A stretch of 64,000 bases of DNA from Cladosporium halotolerans (Eukaryota), in contig NW_027191504.1 in the NCBI RefSeq assembly GCF_011745625.1, positions 1-64,000 of the forward strand, in the 5' to 3' direction. Of this stretch, positions 43,172 through 64,000 are shown piece after piece (within the stretch, counting starts at the first letter, position 1; every line of letters begins with the position of its first letter). A program made the position numbers and the translations under genes. The notes beneath the pieces are model-generated. The model did not search any database. It was not told the DNA's origin and saw nothing but the letters and a program-made list of their open reading frames with translations.

Positions 43172-44217
43172 TCTTGGTCGTTGCCTGTGGGCAACTGGAA
43201 GGCGAGCGGGATGAAAGCAGAAGGCACTGCTTTTTCGAGGGGCGCGCAAGGTCTTGGAGCACTGCTGGAGAAAATATGGGTGATGAACCGAGTTGGAAAC
43301 TTGGGCGCGAGAAAAGGTGATATAGGTGGTGCTGACAGACACAGACCACGCGATTTGTGCGGTCACAGGTCAGATGGAAGACCAGGCTGCCAATGCGCTG
43401 GCGACGTGGATGCGCATTCACCAGTGGTACATTGCGCGCGTGCGCAGAAGAGCAGTCAGAGAGACAATGTCAGGCAGACCGTTGTCCGTTCAGTTCTGCC
43501 TGTGACGCGGGTGAAGCTTCGGAAGGTGGTTGTGAAGGTGAGAGTCGGTGGTATGCGATATGCGATATGCGACGGGCTGGGCGGTGAGAGGACGGGAGCA
43601 GATTCGCGCGTGCGCGTGCAGTTTTGTTGTCGGATCGATGCGAGGCTTCCAGAGGCCGCGATGGCCAGCGAAGTGCACGTATGACACAGACGAGGCTCGT
43701 TCGTGCCCGAGGCCTCTGTCTTTGCTCACTTTTGCGTAAAGCCCGTAAAGCCGCCAAGACTGCCATCTCCGTCTGGGGATGGGCATCAGCCCTACGATGA
43801 CGACGTTGCCTGCTGCCTGCCGACGCCGATCAGACACTTCTCCTTTACTTCACTTCGAATACGTGCTGATGTAATGCAATGAACATGCTGAAGTTGCACT
43901 CTACCGACTTGTATCACCGCATTCATATCCTTGATCGGGACTTTCCATTACCAGACGAGTTCTGCTGATTGAAAGAACAACACCGCTTCTAAACCTTCGA
44001 GCTGAGCTAGTACCAACCACAAAGCTTATTGTCCCGTTCACATGCCACATGCGTAGCATGTATCGCAGGATACCACAATGTGAAACACCAAATTCCCTCG
44101 TTCCGCGCGCACCACTCCTTGCCGCTCCGTCCACGTGCGTTGCGTGTACCGCAGAACACCGCAATCAGAAATTCCAATCCCATACTTGAACATCGCCCAC
44201 ATCACTAACTGGTTTCC

Positions 44218-55044: not shown

Positions 55045-58000
55045 CTAAATCAGCGGCTGGCTGAACTCCCTACTAGGGCGGCGGAACATCTCGGGGCTAG
55101 TAGCGACGAAAGATTCGCGCTTGCGCTTTTCGGGACTTGAAGGAAGTCCATGAGGAAGAGATCGCATCATCTCTGGGGACTTCGACATGGAGGCGGGAGG
55201 TTGGTAGAACGGGATCTGAGTCAGGCTGCCCCTGCGCTCGTCATCCTCAGGAAGCTGGAACTCGGAGAATGGCGCGGACTCGACCGTCTCGTGCACCTCC
55301 GGCTGTCCGCTGACTTGAGTCTGATCTTGGTCCTGCTGCTGATCTTCAACCTTGGAAACAATGTCGGACGCGGATGGCAGCTCGTGATGCACAAGTGGTG
55401 AAGGCGCGCCCTCCTGCTTCGCATCGTGGGAGCCATTCTCAAGTCCGTTCGCAGACCCATTTGGCGCTCCGGGAGGCGAAGATCCATCCTTCTGCTCGGT
55501 GAGACCGGACATCGAAACACCGCTGTCCACGCTTCCATCAACTGGTGGCGGGACACCCATAGGCATCATGCCACCGTTTTGCTGCTGGTAAGCTTGAATG
55601 AATCCGTCCCTTTGGCGGTTGAATGCTTGGATCGCGGCCAGCCCGGCATCTCCATTTTCGTCTCCGCCGTTCATGTCCAGAACCTCGGTGGCAATTTGCT
55701 CGAGCGAAGGAAGCGCGTAGAGTGGCGGACGCTCGGATGACGAGTGATTGGGCATCGGATACGGATTTGCAGATGCTGAGAAGGGTCCGTTGTTGGCAGA
55801 AGGCTCAGGGTACATGGAGAACAGACTCGGGTCGATCGGTGGCGCGCTGGTATTTGTTTGAGCCTGTTGCGCGGACTGTTGGTGGTTTTGATTCTCGTTC
55901 TGCTGCTGTTCGGGGTTGCCCTCTGAAGACGGCGGTCGGTAGAATTGGCCAGGAAGCTTATGGTAGACCTCAGGAGGAGCTTGGGGCGGTGTGACAGACG
56001 GCTTCGGTGTCCTTTGCTGGCCCATTGGCTTCAAGATTCCGTGCATTCCTTGCATCGATGAGGGCGCAGGCGACAATCCAGGCTCCGCAGGCTTCAGGCG
56101 CTTATTCGCATCAAGAGGGCTGCCGTCCTCTGCAGTGCGCTTCTTCGACGCTACAGAACCGCGAGGTATGGGCGACTCAGCTGCCTTGACAGGATCGACA
56201 TTGCCACTTTCATCGTGAATACATCTCCGCTGGCAAGGAATCAGTACATGGGCCACGTGACGATGGGTGGCAAGTTGAGAAACACTTACTTTGCTCTTGC
56301 GGCATTCGACGCAAGCCTTGCTGCGGCCGCGCTTGACATCGCCAAACATAGCCACACCGTTCATCGTCATTGGGATGTTGGCGTTGACATAAGCATTCGT
56401 ACCCGGTAAGGGGCTGTCGAACGGCTGCTCGCCATTGCTGTGCGGGGGTACAGTTGCCAACAGTCCGTTCGGTGTATGTGACTGAGGATCTCCATTAGTT
56501 TGCTGCTCGTCGATGCCGTTCTGATGAGATTGAGCCTGTTGCTCCCGCGCTTGCAGCGGAGAGACAGTGATGTTGTCACCCACCTCCGACGACTGCGGAA
56601 TAAAGAAACCGTCGGGTCCGCCACCCGACGCGAACTGAGGGTTGAAAGGAGGAGGGGTCGGCGCTTGCGTGACGAGGTCTTTGTGCTTGCATCTTATGCG
56701 GCGCTTGCGACAAGCATCGCACGCGACACGCTTCGGCCCCAGGACGGAGGTCTTCGGCGTGCTTAGAAATTGCCCGGGAAACGCACTCATCATCATCGCG
56801 GATGTGAGCGCACCACTTTGCGGTGATGTTTCGCCCGGCGATTGATGGGTTTGAGGGGGGTTTGCGGCGATGCGCGATGGCGACGATGATTTTGCAGGCA
56901 CTTCGCTGCCACCCTTGAAGTTCGCGTCGTTCAAGATCGAAGTGGCGTCCTCGGCTTTTCTCGGGGCCGGCCCGGGGCTCGCGGGAGTAGCCGCACTTGC
57001 CGCCGTCTCCTTAGCGGCCTTCTCGATCATTCGCTTGCTTTGCCGATCCGGTGCGACTTTCCAGGCTGCGATGGCTTCCTTGCGCTGCATCTCCTTGAGC
57101 GCACGCGCCGACAGCTTCTTCGGTTCGCCCATTTCCTTCGAGTTTGGCAGGACTGCGTCAGGGTGCGCCCACGCGGGAGGATCCTCGTTGCCGCGCTTCC
57201 ACGCCACCCAGAGCGCGAAGGTCTTGGCCACTTCCAGAGGTTCGCCGTAGCCTTTCGGGATAGAAGCGTTGACACGCTTGATCCGGTCAGCCGAAATTCC
57301 TTCGATGCGGCCTTGCACGAGCATGACGGTGCGGAAGATGAAGTTAACCAGATCAGGTAAGCCATCGATCTCTGCCTGGCTGTAGTAGCGAGTGCTCTGC
57401 GCGCCTTGCCTCTCGTCCTCTTGTGAAATTCGACCGTCGAAGTCCGTCCAGACAGGCGCCTCGCGGTGGAATTGCTTGCCCTCATAGAAATCTTGTGAGA
57501 CCGCTTGCGGGAGAGGGTCGTCCTTGAGGTACTTGATGGCAGTGTACCACATGATCCTTTGAAAATGCGGGTATCGAAATTTTTGCGGCGTGTTGTTATT
57601 CTTCTCGATGTCGACGATCCTGAACTGATTCTTGAACGACATCCGTGTGAGAAAGTTTCCGCCAATGACCAGGCTAGTCTCCGGAGTCCAGACTGCGTGG
57701 ATCCAGCCAGAAGGGATAAGCATCGTGTCACCTGCGTGCAGATCAACTCGATAACATTCCTTGGTAGTGTGCGGCAGGAATGTGAAATTCTGCTGAGGGC
57801 TGTCGTTCCAATCTTCGTAAGCTTTGAGATGCTTCGGCTTGGGCGGGATGAAGAAGAAAGTCTTTCTGCCCTTCAGAATGTGGTAATAGACACTGCTGCC
57901 TCCAAAATCGATGTGGAAATCCGTATAGCTGTCAGCAACGGACATCAGGCAGTAGAACTGAACTCTCGGAAATTTTCCCTTGTCGGTTTCCTCCTGAGGC

Positions 58001-60174
58001 CACACTTCATCTTGAAGGTCAATATCGCGGACCACCTTCGGCCGTCTGAGCAAGCGCCCGAGTTTCGTTTGCGACACTTCCAGACTGATGACGTTGCGGA
58101 TGGGCTTGTCGTCGCTGTCTTCTTCATAGTAATCCGCCCACTTTGCCAGGTTCATCTTGGCCCCCGAGTTCTGAGTTTTCACATCGATGACATCCAATCC
58201 GTAGTCTGGCCCGACCAAGTTGGCCACCTGTCGAACTGTCAAACCTTCAGGCATGACCATGTCCAGCTTGTCCTGGCCATCGTCTTTGACAGTGTCATAC
58301 TCCAGGTCTTCGGTCGCCACCATTTCCAGGTCTTCAACGCTTGTAGATGGTTTTGGCTCCTCTGAATTTCCATTGACCACCCCAGCTGCCTCAGCTTGTT
58401 TTTGCAGGTCCCAGGGTCGCGGATTCCAGGCTGCCGGTATGCAAATCGGCTCCACGAAAGCGCTGCTTTTCTCGAAGAACTCTCGCGTGACAAGCTCGGG
58501 AGCCATACGAGGGAAAGTCTCAGGATCGAAGGTGAATGTGCCGTCCTTGATCGGTTGAATGTAGTGGTGTTCGTTGCTGTCCTCACTTGTCTTGAGCACG
58601 CCGCGCTGAAGCTCCGCATAATCGACGCTCGTATGCGCTCGTGCGCTCTTGCGAACGTAGGTCGTCTTTCCATGAGCAGGCTCGCAGGTGCTGCAAAAGT
58701 ACTTGTCCACGTCGCGGACTTCGATGGCTTTCTTAAATCCAGCGCAGTCGACGTGGAACCACTTTTTACAGCCATTGCATGAGACCCACTCATCGAGCTC
58801 ACCCGAATGCTGATTTGATTCTCGCGTGCTGTTGCAGCTTGCGCAAATAGTTTCTGGCATGGCCCGATTCTGTTTCCTCGATGGCCGAGAAGGCGTTACT
58901 TCTCGCACGACCATGGGTATCTCGCGTGGGACAGATTGCGCGCGAGTGCCTACAGGGGCACGGTCGAGAGTCTCGGACGCTGTTGTCTCGCTTGCACTGT
59001 GTCGACGTCGAGTGTCCTGCTTCAACTCGAGTGCTGTCTCGGCAAAGACGTCTCGCGACTTTGCAGCTTTAGCGTTCGTCCTGTTTGCGCGCTTCGAAGT
59101 CGTCTTGTCTGTCGTAGATTTCTTCGTGCCAGCTCGAGGCTTTCCTTTCGGCCAGCCTCTCTTCTTCGGTGCATCAGAAGCTTCACTCATCACCACGTCT
59201 GTGCCAGACGCATACAATACGGACTCGTCGGGAGGTGTTTGTGTTTGATGAGGCTCTTTGGGACGCGCAGTAGCGTTTGGGGGCTGGAGCGACGGTATCG
59301 AGTCTGCCGTAGCGACATCATCACTCTGACGCCTTTCGCTCGCCGTCTTTGGACTCAAGCCTGCGCCTTCGCTGGTCCTCTGAGGTGAAGGGAGATTCGG
59401 CAGCGGGTATTGGTTAGGGTACGGATTAGGATTGAAAGGAGGAAGCAGAGGAGGATTCGTCGCCTTCGCGAGAGTTTCAACCGGGCGCTGGTTGTAAACA
59501 TCCGACGGGAAGCTGTTCGCGTGGGGCCTGACGCTGGGTGGAGGGTACGTCGGGGGCATTTTCACGTTTGATGCTGGCCAACCTCCAGTCCTGAAGTTCA
59601 ACAGCAACGCCGCCTCTTCCACGCGACTCTCGTAACTCGCCTGTCCGGTGGAAGCGCCATTAGGCCATCCGTTTGCCTCGTAGCTTGTAGCGGGCCTTGA
59701 AGCATACGGTCCAACCTGTGGGGAAGAGAAGTAGGCAGAGCGCGCACGCTTGTGCGGAGGCTCTGTCCTTGGTGGGTATGAGGGGTGAGCATGGCTGTGT
59801 CCGCTCGTCCTGTCTCTCGTTGGGGCAGTTGCGACAACGCTCGGACTCAGCGCGAGTGCTGCCTCAGCGAGAGTGTCGATGTTCGAGGGCTTTCGCCCAT
59901 GTCCTCTGTGGTAGTCGCTTTGTGCGCGCGCTCTTGTTGGTGTAGCCTTTGCGGCATTTTGCTGGCCAGGCTGCGGCTGCGGTCGCAGACCATGGCCGAG
60001 AGCGTTGTTGATGGTCGGCGGATAGTTGAAGCTGGGCTCAAGCGCCCGGAGCTTGGAGTGGGAGGGCGAGGGTGACAACGGCTCGACGTGTGCTCGAGGT
60101 GGCGTTGGCGAGCGACGAGGCTTCACGTAGCCCGCCGGGCGCTTGAAGTAGCGATTGTGCTCCGAAGCGTACAT
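55045..60174 (-). CDS. JHD1: PHD plus JmjC histone demethylase (Jhd1/KDM2-like) with C-terminal Cys/His zinc-binding-like motifs; intron 56289-56230
   Basis: PHD CASC...WVSCNGCKKWFHVDC...YFCSTC; JmjC YCLMSVADSYTDFHIDFGGSSVYYH...IPSGWIHAVWTP...GGNFL. Confidence 0.92.
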   Translation of the reverse strand: MYASEHNRYFKRPAGYVKPRRSPTPPRAHVEPLSPSPSHSKLRALEPSFNYPPTINNALGHGLRPQPQPGQQNAAKATPTRARAQSDYHRGHGRKPSNIDTLAEAALALSPSVVATAPTRDRTSGHSHAHPSYPPRTEPPHKRARSAYFSSPQVGPYASRPATSYEANGWPNGASTGQASYESRVEEAALLLNFRTGGWPASNVKMPPTYPPPSVRPHANSFPSDVYNQRPVETLAKATNPPLLPPFNPNPYPNQYPLPNLPSPQRTSEGAGLSPKTASERRQSDDVATADSIPSLQPPNATARPKEPHQTQTPPDESVLYASGTDVVMSEASDAPKKRGWPKGKPRAGTKKSTTDKTTSKRANRTNAKAAKSRDVFAETALELKQDTRRRHSASETTASETLDRAPVGTRAQSVPREIPMVVREVTPSRPSRKQNRAMPETICASCNSTRESNQHSGELDEWVSCNGCKKWFHVDCAGFKKAIEVRDVDKYFCSTCEPAHGKTTYVRKSARAHTSVDYAELQRGVLKTSEDSNEHHYIQPIKDGTFTFDPETFPRMAPELVTREFFEKSSAFVEPICIPAAWNPRPWDLQKQAEAAGVVNGNSEEPKPSTSVEDLEMVATEDLEYDTVKDDGQDKLDMVMPEGLTVRQVANLVGPDYGLDVIDVKTQNSGAKMNLAKWADYYEEDSDDKPIRNVISLEVSQTKLGRLLRRPKVVRDIDLQDEVWPQEETDKGKFPRVQFYCLMSVADSYTDFHIDFGGSSVYYHILKGRKTFFFIPPKPKHLKAYEDWNDSPQQNFTFLPHTTKECYRVDLHAGDTMLIPSGWIHAVWTPETSLVIGGNFLTRMSFKNQFRIVDIEKNNNTPQKFRYPHFQRIMWYTAIKYLKDDPLPQAVSQDFYEGKQFHREAPVWTDFDGRISQEDERQGAQSTRYYSQAEIDGLPDLVNFIFRTVMLVQGRIEGISADRIKRVNASIPKGYGEPLEVAKTFALWVAWKRGNEDPPAWAHPDAVLPNSKEMGEPKKLSARALKEMQRKEAIAAWKVAPDRQSKRMIEKAAKETAASAATPASPGPAPRKAEDATSILNDANFKGGSEVPAKSSSPSRIAANPPQTHQSPGETSPQSGALTSAMMMSAFPGQFLSTPKTSVLGPKRVACDACRKRRIRCKHKDLVTQAPTPPPFNPQFASGGGPDGFFIPQSSEVGDNITVSPLQAREQQAQSHQNGIDEQQTNGDPQSHTPNGLLATVPPHSNGEQPFDSPLPGTNAYVNANIPMTMNGVAMFGDVKRGRSKACVECRKSKVSVSQLATHRHVAHVLIPCQRRCIHDESGNVDPVKAAESPIPRGSVASKKRTAEDGSPLDANKRLKPAEPGLSPAPSSMQGMHGILKPMGQQRTPKPSVTPPQAPPEVYHKLPGQFYRPPSSEGNPEQQQNENQNHQQSAQQAQTNTSAPPIDPSLFSMYPEPSANNGPFSASANPYPMPNHSSSERPPLYALPSLEQIATEVLDMNGGDENGDAGLAAIQAFNRQRDGFIQAYQQQNGGMMPMGVPPPVDGSVDSGVSMSGLTEQKDGSSPPGAPNGSANGLENGSHDAKQEGAPSPLVHHELPSASDIVSKVEDQQQDQDQTQVSGQPEVHETVESAPFSEFQLPEDDERRGSLTQIPFYQPPASMSKSPEMMRSLPHGLPSSPEKRKRESFVATSPEMFRRPSREFSQPLI

Positions 60175-60998
60175 TGCGGCGCCGCGGTGAAGCCAGCGGA
60201 TGTCCGAGGATGGTGTCGGCGAAGCAGGGCGGGCGCGCCAACGCCGGGGAGCAGCCGGTTCAATTGGCACAATTCGCGGGAGGGTTTCAGGTCATAATCG
60301 AGTGGGTGATCGCGCGCGCAGGGTGTGCCAGGCAAGTGTGAGTCGTCGTAGAGGGTGCGCAAGGCCCGGTGAGTAGGCGGTGATGCCCCGCGTGCCCGCG
60401 ACGGTTACCCACTTGAGGTGGGCTGGGCTGGGTGAGGCCCGACTGAGACGCCGAGCGGAGGTGGGCGCGAGCTGCGAACGGCGATGCAGCGGCGGCAGCA
60501 CGGCGGCAATGGCGCGGGCGGGGAGATCAATAGGGCAACAGTGAGCAGTGGTATCGCTTTACGAGGGTGTGAGGTGTCTAGAGGGCGCGCGTGCTGCGGC
60601 GAGCGAGGTATGAGACAGACAGCAGCAGATCGCGCATTCCACCTGAGCCGCAGGCAAGCACCGGCAGCTGCTGCTTTGGCTTTGGCTCTGCCTGCTGCGG
60701 CGGCAAGCTCGGGACAGCCGACAGCCCCTGCCCAGTGCGTGCCTCAGTCATCAACTGCTCCGCACTTCGTCACGTGCGTCTGACGCGCTCCTTGCGGCTG
60801 GCATGCCTTGCTGCCTCATTGCTGCCTGACCGCAGCGCCGCAACGGCGACGACGCCGGCCCGTTGACGATCTGGCAGCACGTGCGCAGCTTCAGCGACTG
60901 CATGCGATCTCGTAATCTACCGTAGCCCACCACGCCCGCTCGCTATACCACACACAATCAACCACCCGCAATACCCCTCGAACAACACTAGCCAAGCT

Positions 60999-61498
60999 AT
61001 GAGCCGCAATTCCAGGCTTGCCCCAGAAGTGAACAGGCGAGTCCGCTCCCTCGTGTCATGCGACACCACCGGAACCTCCACCGACTAACAACCCACCAGA
61101 GCGCTCTTTGTCAAGAACCTCAGCTACACCGTCAGCACCGAAGAGCTCTTCGACCTCTTCGGCAAATTCGGTTCCATCAGGCACGCAAACCCCACACGCA
61201 ACACCTCCCGGCGCATCCGTCCCACTAACACCCCACTAGGCAGATCCGCCAGGGCATCGCGAACAACACCAAGGGCTCCGCGTACGTCGTCTATGAGGAC
61301 GTGAACGACGCCAAGAGCGCCTGCGACCGTCTGAACGGCTTCAACTTCCAGTCGCGCTACCTCGTCGTCCTCTACCACCAGCCCGAGAGGATGTCAAAAG
61401 CAGCCGCCGCGGCCGCGGCCGCCGCCTCCTCGTCAACAGATCTCGCCGAGCGCTCGGAGCACTTAGAAAAGCTCAAACAGGAGCATGGGGTCGCCTAG
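60999..61498 (+). CDS. SF3B6: Pre-mRNA branch-site protein p14 (SF3b14/SF3B6), RRM; exons 60999-61036, 61100-61180, 61240-61498
   Basis: Spliced product [87 protein letters not shown] matches the p14 family signature. The ORF track shows only the last part. Confidence 0.95.
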
Positions 61499-62354
61499 CG
61501 GTGCGCGGGAGCCGGCAGCAACAGCGAGGTTGGCATCAAGCGGAAGGACTCTGGCATCAGCGGCGCTGATAGCGAGGGCTCCGCTGCGGCTCCCATTGCG
61601 ATCAAGGATTTTGGCGAGAAAGTTGGAACCGGAGGCGGCGGCGGCAGCGTCACGACTACGGTCGTCGCGCCGGAAGGGAATGTTACGATATCGGCCCTCC
61701 CCAGGGACGGGCATATGAGTTATTGGAGGCGCGTCAAGGACAAGGCGTTCGGGAAAGTCCACGTTCGCTGTGGCAGGGCTTGAGGTTCAAGTGGCGTTCT
61801 TTGATTGATAATTTCGGCCATTCGGCTGGGTTTTCCTTTCTGCGGGTTGGAGAAGTCTATATCCCTCGCAACAACAATTCAGTTTTCGCTCTCGCGATTG
61901 CGTTGCGATTGCAAAGTTTGTTCATGGTGTTCTCCTATTGCAATCTCTTCATTTGCAATGGCTTGACATTGATTGAAGTCTGATAATATGCCCACAATCT
62001 CCGAGCAGGGTCCAGGGCTTAGAAGTGGGACATAAGCCTTCATGTTTCCCCCCCTTGCAGTAATTGATTACCCCAGTGACCCTAGATGGAGCTCGTTGTG
62101 GGCACCCTACTCCATACTATTGTAATGAGGTGCTTGAACAGCATTGTTCTCACTCTCGTGGATGTAAGGTCTGTGGACGTCCATCCGATGATACGCAATT
62201 GAGCAGAGCTGACAGAAAGCTTGATCAGTGGTTCAGACACAGAGCGGGCTGCTAGAGTCATTACAGCTTCGTATCCCATCTTGCATTCATGGACAATTCC
62301 TAATCGTGCTAATCTCTATCCACAGTATGCACAGTAAGCACAGCATATTCCCAT

Positions 62355-63368
62355 CTACGCCTTATCAGCCGGATACCTCACACCACCCTGCCTCCTCAAA
62401 TCACTCGTTACACCAATAACAATCTTCGAAATCCTCTCTAAATCCTCCGCAGCCTTAACATCCTTCTCGCCCACAATCCGCGCAAACTCCTCCGCCTCCT
62501 CCTCCATATTCACCTGCGCCTTCTCGTCCCTCAGCGGCCCCGCCAGCTCCTCGCTCTTCTTCGTCCTAGGGTCCCAGTGCACCACGCTCTTAATATCCGT
62601 CGTCGCATTCACACTGATCGTACCCTTCTCGCCGTACACCTCGCACGGCGCGAAGCTCTGGTAGCCCTTGGACTGGTTGATCTGCACGCCGAAGCCGTCG
62701 TACTGCAGCAGCACGACGCCGCCGCCGTCGACGCCCGTCGCGCAGATGAAGGGCACGTACGACTGCGCTTTGGGCGCGCCGAAGAGCGCCACCGCGAACG
62801 TGATCGGGTACACGCCGATGTCGACCAGGCTGCCGCCGCTGAAGTCGAGCGAGAAGATGTTCGGCACCTCGCCCGCGAGCACGTTGTTGTAGCGCGAGCT
62901 GTAGGAGGCGTACGTCAGGCTGGCGCCGTAGATGGGGCCCAGGCGCTGCTGGTCGACGATCAGGCTGCGGAGGAGCTTGTAGTTCGCTTCCTGAATGTGC
63001 CGGAAGGCTTCGATGAGGAAGACGTTGTGCTGCTTCGCGGTCTGGAACAGGTCGTCGAGCTCCGCGGGCGTCGACGTCGCGGGCTTCTCGAGGATGACGT
63101 GCTTGCCGGCTTGCAGGAGCTGTTTGGCGTGCGCGTGGTGGTGGGAGTTCGGGGAGGCGATGTAGACTGCTTGCATGTCCTTGTCGGCAGCGAGGCCGTC
63201 GAGCGAGGTGTACAGGTTCTTGCAGCCGAATTTGGCGCCGAAGGCTTCAGCTTGCTCTTGTTTGCGCGAGTAGACGGCGTGTAGCTGCCATTGGCCTTTC
63301 TTGGAGGCGGCTTTGATGAAGGCCTCGGTGATCCAGCCGGTGCCAATTGTGCCGAAGGTGATCGCCAT
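62355..63368 (-). CDS. Gfo/Idh/MocA family NAD(P)-dependent oxidoreductase, YgjR-like, intronless
   Basis: FGTIGTGWIT, AVYIASPNSHH, HVILEKP, YSSRY...PNIF...GGSLVDIGVY and C-terminal LRRQGGVRYPAD. Confidence 0.92.
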   Translation of the reverse strand: MAITFGTIGTGWITEAFIKAASKKGQWQLHAVYSRKQEQAEAFGAKFGCKNLYTSLDGLAADKDMQAVYIASPNSHHHAHAKQLLQAGKHVILEKPATSTPAELDDLFQTAKQHNVFLIEAFRHIQEANYKLLRSLIVDQQRLGPIYGASLTYASYSSRYNNVLAGEVPNIFSLDFSGGSLVDIGVYPITFAVALFGAPKAQSYVPFICATGVDGGGVVLLQYDGFGVQINQSKGYQSFAPCEVYGEKGTISVNATTDIKSVVHWDPRTKKSEELAGPLRDEKAQVNMEEEAEEFARIVGEKDVKAAEDLERISKIVIGVTSDLRRQGGVRYPADKA

Positions 63369-64000
63369 GTTTGTAAGTGTTTGAGGGGTGCCGGGAGAGT
63401 CGATGAAGAAGATTGACTATGGAGTGTAGGTACTGGAGGGTAAGAAGGATCAGAGAAAATAGATTTGTATGTACAGGTTCACAAGAAAGCCAAAGTGTCG
63501 TCAAAGGCGTGTGGACCTTCCTCCACAACAGCAGTTGAGACTCACAAAAGTTGAAGGAAGTGGGGGGCGATGACGGAGCGCGGGGCGCCAGCTCCAAAGC
63601 TCCAGGTCAAACAGTCGACATCATTTGCAACGGAAACATTCAACTAGTGGTCGATTCGGAGTGGACTTGCGTGTTCTCTTTGTTGTTTTTGAAGACAGCC
63701 ACTGATAGTGCAAATCTAAATTTGTGATTGACTTTGTGCCAGACATCACTCTGTTCGTCTTCGTTGATATCCTCTTTTGTTGAAAGCCGCAGCCTCAATA
63801 TCAACAACTCCCTTCCCTTCGACTCATTGGACAGCCACAAGACGACATTGGGAGCGAATCGCATGCGAAATGCGCCCAGGTATACCTGCATGATCTATAC
63901 ACACAAAGCACATTGTCAAACGCATCCATAACTACCGTGAAAGATTCGAAGCAGAAGCCCAGTAAATGGCCTTAAGATTGTAAGGGTTAGGGTTGGGGCA

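Follow-up and report, generated by a model that had tools for sequence, protein, structure and literature searches.

The window (the whole 64-kb stretch of DNA that was analysed) carries on its forward strand the gene for the spliceosomal protein p14 (SF3B6), composed of three coding exons and two short introns that both begin with GC and end with AG. The p14 gene lies between two open reading frames (ORFs) on the reverse strand. Coordinates are those of the window, and a slash in a donor motif marks the exon-intron boundary.

55045-60291, reverse strand: ORF of 1748 codons with JmjC, JHD, Cupin_8 and PHD-finger domains (Pfam)
60928..60998, forward strand: 5' UTR of p14, minimum extent; RNA contigs start at 60928 (X19), 60945 (X16) and 60967 (X15)
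60999..61036, forward strand: coding part of p14 exon 1; ATG at 60999, 12 residues and the first two bases of an arginine codon; the peptide matches orthologues
61037..61099, forward strand: p14 intron 1; 63 nt, GC-AG, phase 2, donor cag/GCGAGT, 3' end CAG
61084..61089, forward strand: branch-site motif ACTAAC of intron 1; branch A at 61088, 11 nt before the intron 3' end
61100..61180, forward strand: p14 exon 2; N-terminal part of the RRM, 26 residues, Pfam RRM_1 (E 3e-07), covered by RNA contigs
61181..61239, forward strand: p14 intron 2; 59 nt, GC-AG, phase 2, donor cag/GCACGC, 3' end TAG
61224..61229, forward strand: branch-site motif ACTAAC of intron 2; branch A at 61228, 11 nt before the intron 3' end
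61240..61498, forward strand: coding part of p14 exon 3; C-terminal part of the RRM, alanine-rich linker, C-terminal helix region and stop, Pfam RRM_1 (E 5.6e-06)
61499..61858, forward strand: 3' UTR of p14, approximate; contigs from two studies (X15 record 4 and X16 record 8) both stop at 61858
62355-63416, reverse strand: intron-less ORF of 353 codons with GFO_IDH_MocA N-terminal (E 1.9e-30) and C-terminal (E 3e-09) domains

According to the RNA contigs, the p14 mRNA spans at least 60928 to about 61858. Its upstream limits are ends of contigs and not mapped transcription starts, and the contig end shared by two studies at 61858 gives a slight hint of a poly(A) site. Two ORFs downstream (61499-61783, forward strand; 61463-61786, reverse strand) had no Pfam match and are covered by p14 mRNA contigs; they were therefore read as p14 3' UTR and rejected as genes.

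Judging from its domains, the upstream ORF at 55045-60291 is a putative histone demethylase-like gene of the JmjC/PHD type. This ORF and p14 are transcribed divergently, about 700 bp separate the end of its frame (60291) from the p14 ATG, and the interval is possibly a shared promoter region. In the C-terminal half of this ORF, the stretch …CRKSK/VSVSQ…/RRCIHD… looks by eye like an in-frame retained intron in a Zn2Cys6-like motif. The downstream ORF at 62355-63416, convergent with p14, has the domain make-up of a predicted NAD(P)-dependent oxidoreductase.

Identity of the p14 gene

Joined together, the three exons give 378 nt with a single open frame of 125 amino acids. Both introns are in phase 2, each inside an arginine codon. 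An open frame alone does not choose this model, since an enumeration of GT-AG and GC-AG models returned 977 two-intron combinations that leave the p14 frame open; the choice is made by homology and RNA. Open models with a single intron numbered three, each of them without exon 2. The intron coordinates and motifs given in a first-pass annotation of this DNA were all found in the sequence, and it had rightly placed the nearby GT dinucleotides in the wrong phase (GTCCGC at 61041 and GTTCCA at 61171, with the acceptors at 61099 and 61239). When aligned with P0003 (on 59 contigs) and P0017, which are complete spliced products of near-identical relatives, and with named p14 proteins of Pezizomycotina, both junctions are free of gaps, and the relatives follow the pattern ...FGKFG.[IV]R/QIRQG... 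across the junction of exons 2 and 3 (slash). Exon 2 covers positions 1-25 of the 70 positions of the Pfam RRM_1 profile (E 3e-07) and exon 3 covers positions 36-69 of 70 (E 5.6e-06), both above the cutoff, so the RRM lies in two pieces and intron 2 splits a single domain.

With exon 3 as the query, 643 homologues were found at E <= 0.001 among 645 candidates. These come from Dothideomycetes and other Pezizomycotina and bear the names 'pre-mRNA branch site protein p14' or 'Splicing factor 3B subunit 6-like'. The closest named relatives, at 57-73% identity over exon 3, are Dothideomycetes (for example Meristemomyces, Teratosphaeria and Hortaea), and unnamed metagenome proteins reach 86-89%. In a comparison with solved structures, human p14 (2f9d, 5z56 and others) accounts for the four best distinct sequences, at E 5.5e-15 to 7.6e-14, and the next RRM protein after p14 is HuC at E 3.8e-4. 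The Pfam match, the names of the homologues and the human structures agree with the earlier assignment: the gene is an expressed p14/SF3B6 orthologue of a Dothideomycete-like fungus, and its product is a subunit of the SF3b part of the U2 snRNP.

Human p14 binds a peptide of SF3B1 (SF3b155) and contacts the branch-point adenosine. The window protein resembles it in being a single RRM of about 125 amino acids, the exon 3 part of which aligns with human residues 47-97 (2f9d, E 5.5e-15), and it has in common with its Pezizomycotina orthologues the N-terminal motif ...PEVNR.LF.KNL.Y.... Compared with most named p14 orthologues, it has a longer alanine-rich insert behind the RRM, AAAAAAAAASSS, from which no functional difference is implied. 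This alanine run (window 61390-61432) differs in length among P0003, P0014, P0017 and loci L001-L010, and is a coding simple-repeat length polymorphism.

Both introns are removed at GC-AG

Contigs from three RNA runs of three studies (X16, X19 and X15) and from one DNA run (X3) were compared over positions 60300-62400. A skip of 63 bases at intron 1 (61033 to 61097, slack 3) and a skip of 59 bases at intron 2 (61178 to 61238, slack 5) are present in all three RNA runs, and five of five RNA contigs are spliced at each intron position. Within the slack, intron 1 can be placed as CA..AC, AG..CC, GG..CA or GC..AG, and intron 2 as AG..CT, GG..TA, GC..AG, CA..GG, AC..GC or CG..CA. GC..AG is the sole recognised intron type among these placements, which means that the introns are removed there, and the RNA contigs of three studies thereby confirm the proposed junctions of both introns. 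Neither an intron-retaining contig nor any cover of the intron interiors was found in the three RNA runs, bearing in mind that assembled contigs lose rare isoforms. Both introns are excised precisely at GC..AG, and each of the three independent RNA data sets yielded the mRNA in its fully spliced form.

The RNA strains are a few bases off the window (e.g. at 61288 and 61330, and a 3-base deletion at 61634), and the junctions and the donor bases come from different individuals and not from one. A DNA contig spanning 60300-61267 (X3 record 11) has the same bases as the window at 61037-61038 and at 61181-61182. It differs from the window upstream, at 60523, 60568, 60799 and 60828, and on account of these four differences it represents another strain. 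With both donors unchanged in this independent contig, they are not base-call errors.

Two kinds of RNA contig were found, one identical or nearly identical to the window and one with three differences in exon 1 and seven in exon 2. The diverged contigs have the same skips, and a second, related taxon is therefore spliced at both places as well. This second taxon was seen beside the window species in two RNA runs (X15 and X16) and, with diverged introns, in the DNA run (X3 record 12). Runs X2-X14 contained 70-85% of sampled words. Three changes in the 3' UTR (C>T at 61630, G>C at 61654 and the deletion at 61634) recur in all three RNA runs when set against the window, and X3 has none of them; these differences at 61630-61654 are strain variation.

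The branch motif of both introns is the U2-type ACTAAC, 11 nt from the acceptor. U12-type introns were considered and rejected from the sequence, as neither of the donors (GCGAGT, GCACGC) nor the ACTAAC motif resembles the U12 signals that are generally known.

Donor sites at orthologous loci

A profile of exon 3 was searched against JGI metagenome contigs, which gave 246 confirmed relatives, and the best 80 loci were analysed. At each locus the three exons were anchored by ungapped peptide matching and the intron ends were then read. Ten duplicate loci were removed, leaving 70 distinct loci (from the best 80 of 246) for the tally of donors.

Intron 1 position, 70 distinct loci: GT 16, GC 3, no intron 14, other exon structure 30, unresolved 7
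Intron 2 position, 70 distinct loci: GT 44, GC 0, no intron 22, unresolved 4

The ten closest loci among the best 80 of 246 have an exon 3 identity of 87-89%, and one of these, L006, is an intron-less transcript contig. The donor of intron 2 is GT in all nine of the closest genomic loci, namely GTATGC in L001-L003 and GTAAGC in L004, L005 and L007-L010. At intron 1, the donor is GTCCGT in L001-L003, GTGAGT in L004, GCGAGT in L007 and GCAAGT in L008 and in L009, which is the same as L010; intron 1 of L005 is cut off by the end of its contig. These donor readings of close relatives were confirmed by base-by-base alignment.

Thirteen of the 70 distinct loci from the best 80 of 246 have no intron at either place, and some of them may be transcripts. 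Genomic loci that are without both introns include L039 on a contig of 1,263,879 nt, L070 (239,294 nt), L072 (72,829 nt) and L029 (18,937 nt). L018, on a contig of 247,326 nt, is without intron 2, and L012 is without intron 1.

The first-pass annotation had drawn attention to the perfect branch sites of both introns. ACTAAC is indeed present in each, but among the orthologous loci an exact ACTAAC or GCTAAC was found in 15 of 19 branch motifs of intron 1 and 19 of 44 of intron 2, the rest being mostly CTGAC variants. Consensus branch sites are thus the norm among orthologues and do not distinguish the window gene.

In the window, retention of intron 1 leads to an in-frame TAA at 61086-61088, within the branch motif as had been pointed out before, and retention of intron 2 leads to a frameshift with a stop at 61305-61307. 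A TAA inside CTAAC is expected to be in frame in one of three frames. Intron 1 of L001 is 69 nt long with no in-frame stop, such that its retention would add 23 residues and no truncation. L007 and L008 have an intron 1 of 66 nt, also divisible by three, with an in-frame stop. With retention, the frame of L002, L003 and L009 runs past 60 codons before any stop. A premature stop upon retention is not conserved among orthologues.

Several database proteins (P0001, P0002, P0004, P0008, P0010, P0013 and P0014) start in the translated 3' part of intron 2 and continue into exon 3. They are unspliced ORFs from prokaryote-style calling on fungal contigs, some of which have been given the name 'pre-mRNA branch site protein p14' by JGI.

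Base rate and base composition

GC-AG introns make up 1.009% of annotated fungal introns in Table 1 of PMC7072748, and 0.77% of the 2604 inspected introns of F. graminearum reported in PMC3577648. Taking the published fungal rate as about 1%, both introns of a given two-intron gene would be GC in about 1 in 10,000 cases. With an assumed 10,000 genes or so, this would be of the order of one double-GC gene per fungal genome. The finding is unusual for one gene, and is not unusual for a scan of many windows.

The 64-kb window was also screened for introns ab initio, with the impossible 'donors' GA and GG as a false-positive control. A first screen gave GT 107, GC 151, GA 106 and GG 88 and did not discriminate. 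A strict screen gave GT 7, GC 3 (both p14 introns included), GA 3 and GG 3, so that the controls were equally frequent. The remaining GC candidate of the strict screen (43242-43344, forward strand, GCGCGC, 103 nt) is probably due to chance, given the equal frequency of the GA and GG false positives.

Fractions of C and T on the sense strand were as follows.

p14 third codon positions: C 0.57, T 0.06
p14 intron 1: C 0.44, T 0.13
p14 intron 2: C 0.51, T 0.08
Third positions of the neighbouring 1748-codon ORF: C 0.32, T 0.20

The sense strand of p14 is markedly C-rich and T-poor. Such a bias of C over T would make T>C changes likelier to arise and to persist in this gene. The bias itself may come from mutation, or from codon-usage selection acting on a well-expressed gene.

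Strength and history of the donors

Pairing of the donors with U1 was predicted using the general motif at the U1 5' end. The intron 1 donor of the window has a predicted pairing energy of -7.3 kcal/mol, compared with -11.7 for its GT version. The GT donor GTCCGT found at the intron 1 site in L001-L003 and L011 is predicted at -5.6 kcal/mol, and the GC donor of the window therefore pairs more strongly than this GT donor in the prediction. At -4.5 kcal/mol, the intron 2 donor of the window has the weakest predicted U1 pairing among close relatives, and is matched by the GT donor at intron 2 of L011 (-4.3 kcal/mol).

The consensus of fungal GC donors, as given for F. graminearum in PMC3577648, is AG/GCAAGT. 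Intron 1 (cag/GCGAGT; 7 of 9 positions, -7.3 kcal/mol) fits this F. graminearum consensus, and intron 2 (cag/GCACGC; 6 of 9 positions, -4.5 kcal/mol) does not, being off at +4 and +6. Like other fungal U2-type GC-AG introns, the p14 introns have GC at +1/+2 and AG at the 3' end, follow an exonic AG and contain a consensus branch site. They are unlike them in that both introns of one gene are GC-AG and in that intron 2 has neither the A at +4 nor the T at +6 that usually compensate. From the predicted pairing, some loss of splicing efficiency at the intron 2 donor is plausible.

A maximum-likelihood tree of the p14 gene region was rooted with L011 and L015. It groups the window, at bootstrap 78, with a sister clade of L004-L010 (bootstrap 100), and L001-L003 fall outside the window and L004-L010 (bootstrap 95). 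The window and the GC-carrying sister clade are separated by about 20% nucleotide divergence. At both intron positions, GT is present in the two outgroup loci and throughout L001-L003, which argues that GT is ancestral. Within the sister clade, the GT of L004 is nested among GC loci, so at least two changes are required at position +2 of intron 1. These could be either one gain of GC with a reversal in L004, or repeated gains. Among the loci read, GC at intron 1 is common only to the window lineage and this one sister clade, and GC at intron 2 is a single change private to the window lineage.

Discussion

We consider it likely that p14 has two ordinary U2-type GC-AG introns that came about through tolerated T>C transitions in a C-rich, T-poor gene. 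Each GC donor would descend from an ancestral GT whose T, at position +2 of the intron, underwent a transition to C. This is the most tolerated change that a donor can undergo, and the normal U1/U6 machinery would still recognise GC. Splicing would remain efficient owing to CAG at the exon end, G at both +1 and +5, the shortness of the introns and a consensus ACTAAC placed 11 nt from the acceptor. The change at intron 1 would be the older one, common to the window and its sister clade and flipped at least twice, and the change at intron 2 would be private to the window lineage. No special regulatory role is needed to account for two GC donors.

Some points count against drift. One is that both of the only two introns of p14 are GC, a coincidence of about 1 in 10,000, and that this occurs in the gene of a splicing factor. 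Another is the donor of intron 2, GCACGC, which is off consensus and has the weakest predicted U1 pairing among close relatives. The persistence of GC at intron 1 across a clade of about 20% divergence is compatible with selection and does not require it.

A comparable turnover of donors has been described in mammals by Churbanov et al. 2008 (PMC2490688), where 298 conversions of GT to GC were reported against 40 reversals. The p14 introns are alike in that GT gives way to GC at a positionally conserved intron with an occasional reversal, and unlike in that they concern a fungus and the scale of one genus-like clade. In the account given in PMC2490688, selection for alternative splicing was favoured, of which the pattern at p14 gives no sign.

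Selection could also have acted with p14 not sensing its own level, by fixing in this lineage a T>C transition at intron 2, and perhaps one at intron 1, for a lower or condition-dependent amount of p14 mRNA. The poor predicted pairing of the intron 2 donor, the weakest among close relatives, and the persistence of GC at intron 1 in several related taxa would fit such tuning. We nevertheless think it unlikely. The RNA contigs give no sign of reduced splicing, equally weak GT donors occur in relatives (intron 1 of L001-L003, -5.6 kcal/mol; intron 2 of L011, -4.3 kcal/mol), and the history of intron 1, with a reversal or with repeated gains, resembles drift.

The first-pass annotation had proposed a homeostatic circuit, in which the weak GC donors limit p14 splicing, spliceosome or SF3b activity shifts the extent of intron retention and nonsense-mediated decay (NMD) sets the level of p14. 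Autoregulation of splicing-factor genes through unproductive splicing is known in animals and plants (SR proteins, SmB and others), and p14 is similar in being a splicing-factor gene with suboptimal sites in which, in this one genome, retention leads to stops. A premature stop does follow in the window whichever intron is retained, the intron 2 donor is weak (-4.5 kcal/mol predicted), and GC donors are described as enriched in alternatively spliced genes of human, nematode and Arabidopsis (PMC2490688). The orthologues, however, carry ordinary GT donors, which the annotation itself had named as grounds for giving up the idea: GC was found in 0 of 44 donors of intron 2 and 3 of 19 of intron 1 (70 distinct loci, best 80 of 246), and L004 carries GT inside the GC clade. 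Furthermore, L039, L070, L072 and L029 are intron-less on long genomic contigs, the stop met upon retention is not conserved (the frame is open in L001 and runs past 60 codons in L002, L003 and L009), and consensus branch sites are general among orthologues. The three RNA runs held no retained-intron contig, a weak argument in that contigs lose rare forms. Known autoregulatory circuits rest on strongly conserved regulatory elements. The supposed elements of p14 are unlike these in that they are not conserved even in the closest relatives, and no unproductive p14 isoform is found among the assembled RNA contigs. In the literature library searched, nothing joins SF3B6 with GC-AG introns; the papers listed there on SF3B6, autoregulation and intron retention deal with human or mouse by their titles and the openings of their abstracts, which mention neither fungi nor the splicing of p14 itself. 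As a homeostatic circuit, the proposal is very unlikely to hold.

A young, lineage-specific form of feedback, in which the poor intron 2 donor together with GC drift would make p14 mRNA unusually dependent on strong branch-site recognition by the U2 snRNP and SF3b, of which p14 itself is a part, is in our view a highly improbable reading as well. Such feedback might be negative or positive on SF3b activity and would act via intron retention and NMD. Were this so, a core spliceosome gene would have evolved an autoregulatory loop only recently, which would be a rare occurrence, and the comparative data argue against it.

An artefact, be it GC donors produced by faulty base calls or assembly, true junctions that lie elsewhere or introns of the U12 type, is practically out of the question. 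Nothing was found in its favour, PMC7072748 noting in general that GC-AG introns are sometimes thrown out as annotation artefacts; against it, both donor bases recur in a DNA contig of another strain, the identical hexamer GCGAGT stands at the homologous intron 1 site of L007, the RNA joints of three studies are compatible with GC..AG alone, and the donors and ACTAAC branch sites are unlike U12-type signals as generally known.

Tolerated drift from GT to GC is thus the reading that we prefer for both introns of p14. For annotation, it means that gene finders which refuse GC donors will mis-annotate the p14 gene, and prokaryote-style calling has already left truncated p14 'proteins' in the databases (P0001, P0004, P0008, P0010, P0013 and P0014). 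For the evolution of these fungi, the locus offers a small, RNA-verified example of the turnover of GT and GC at positionally conserved introns, in which one gain is common to a clade, was reversed or repeated within it, and was followed at the other intron by a gain private to one lineage.
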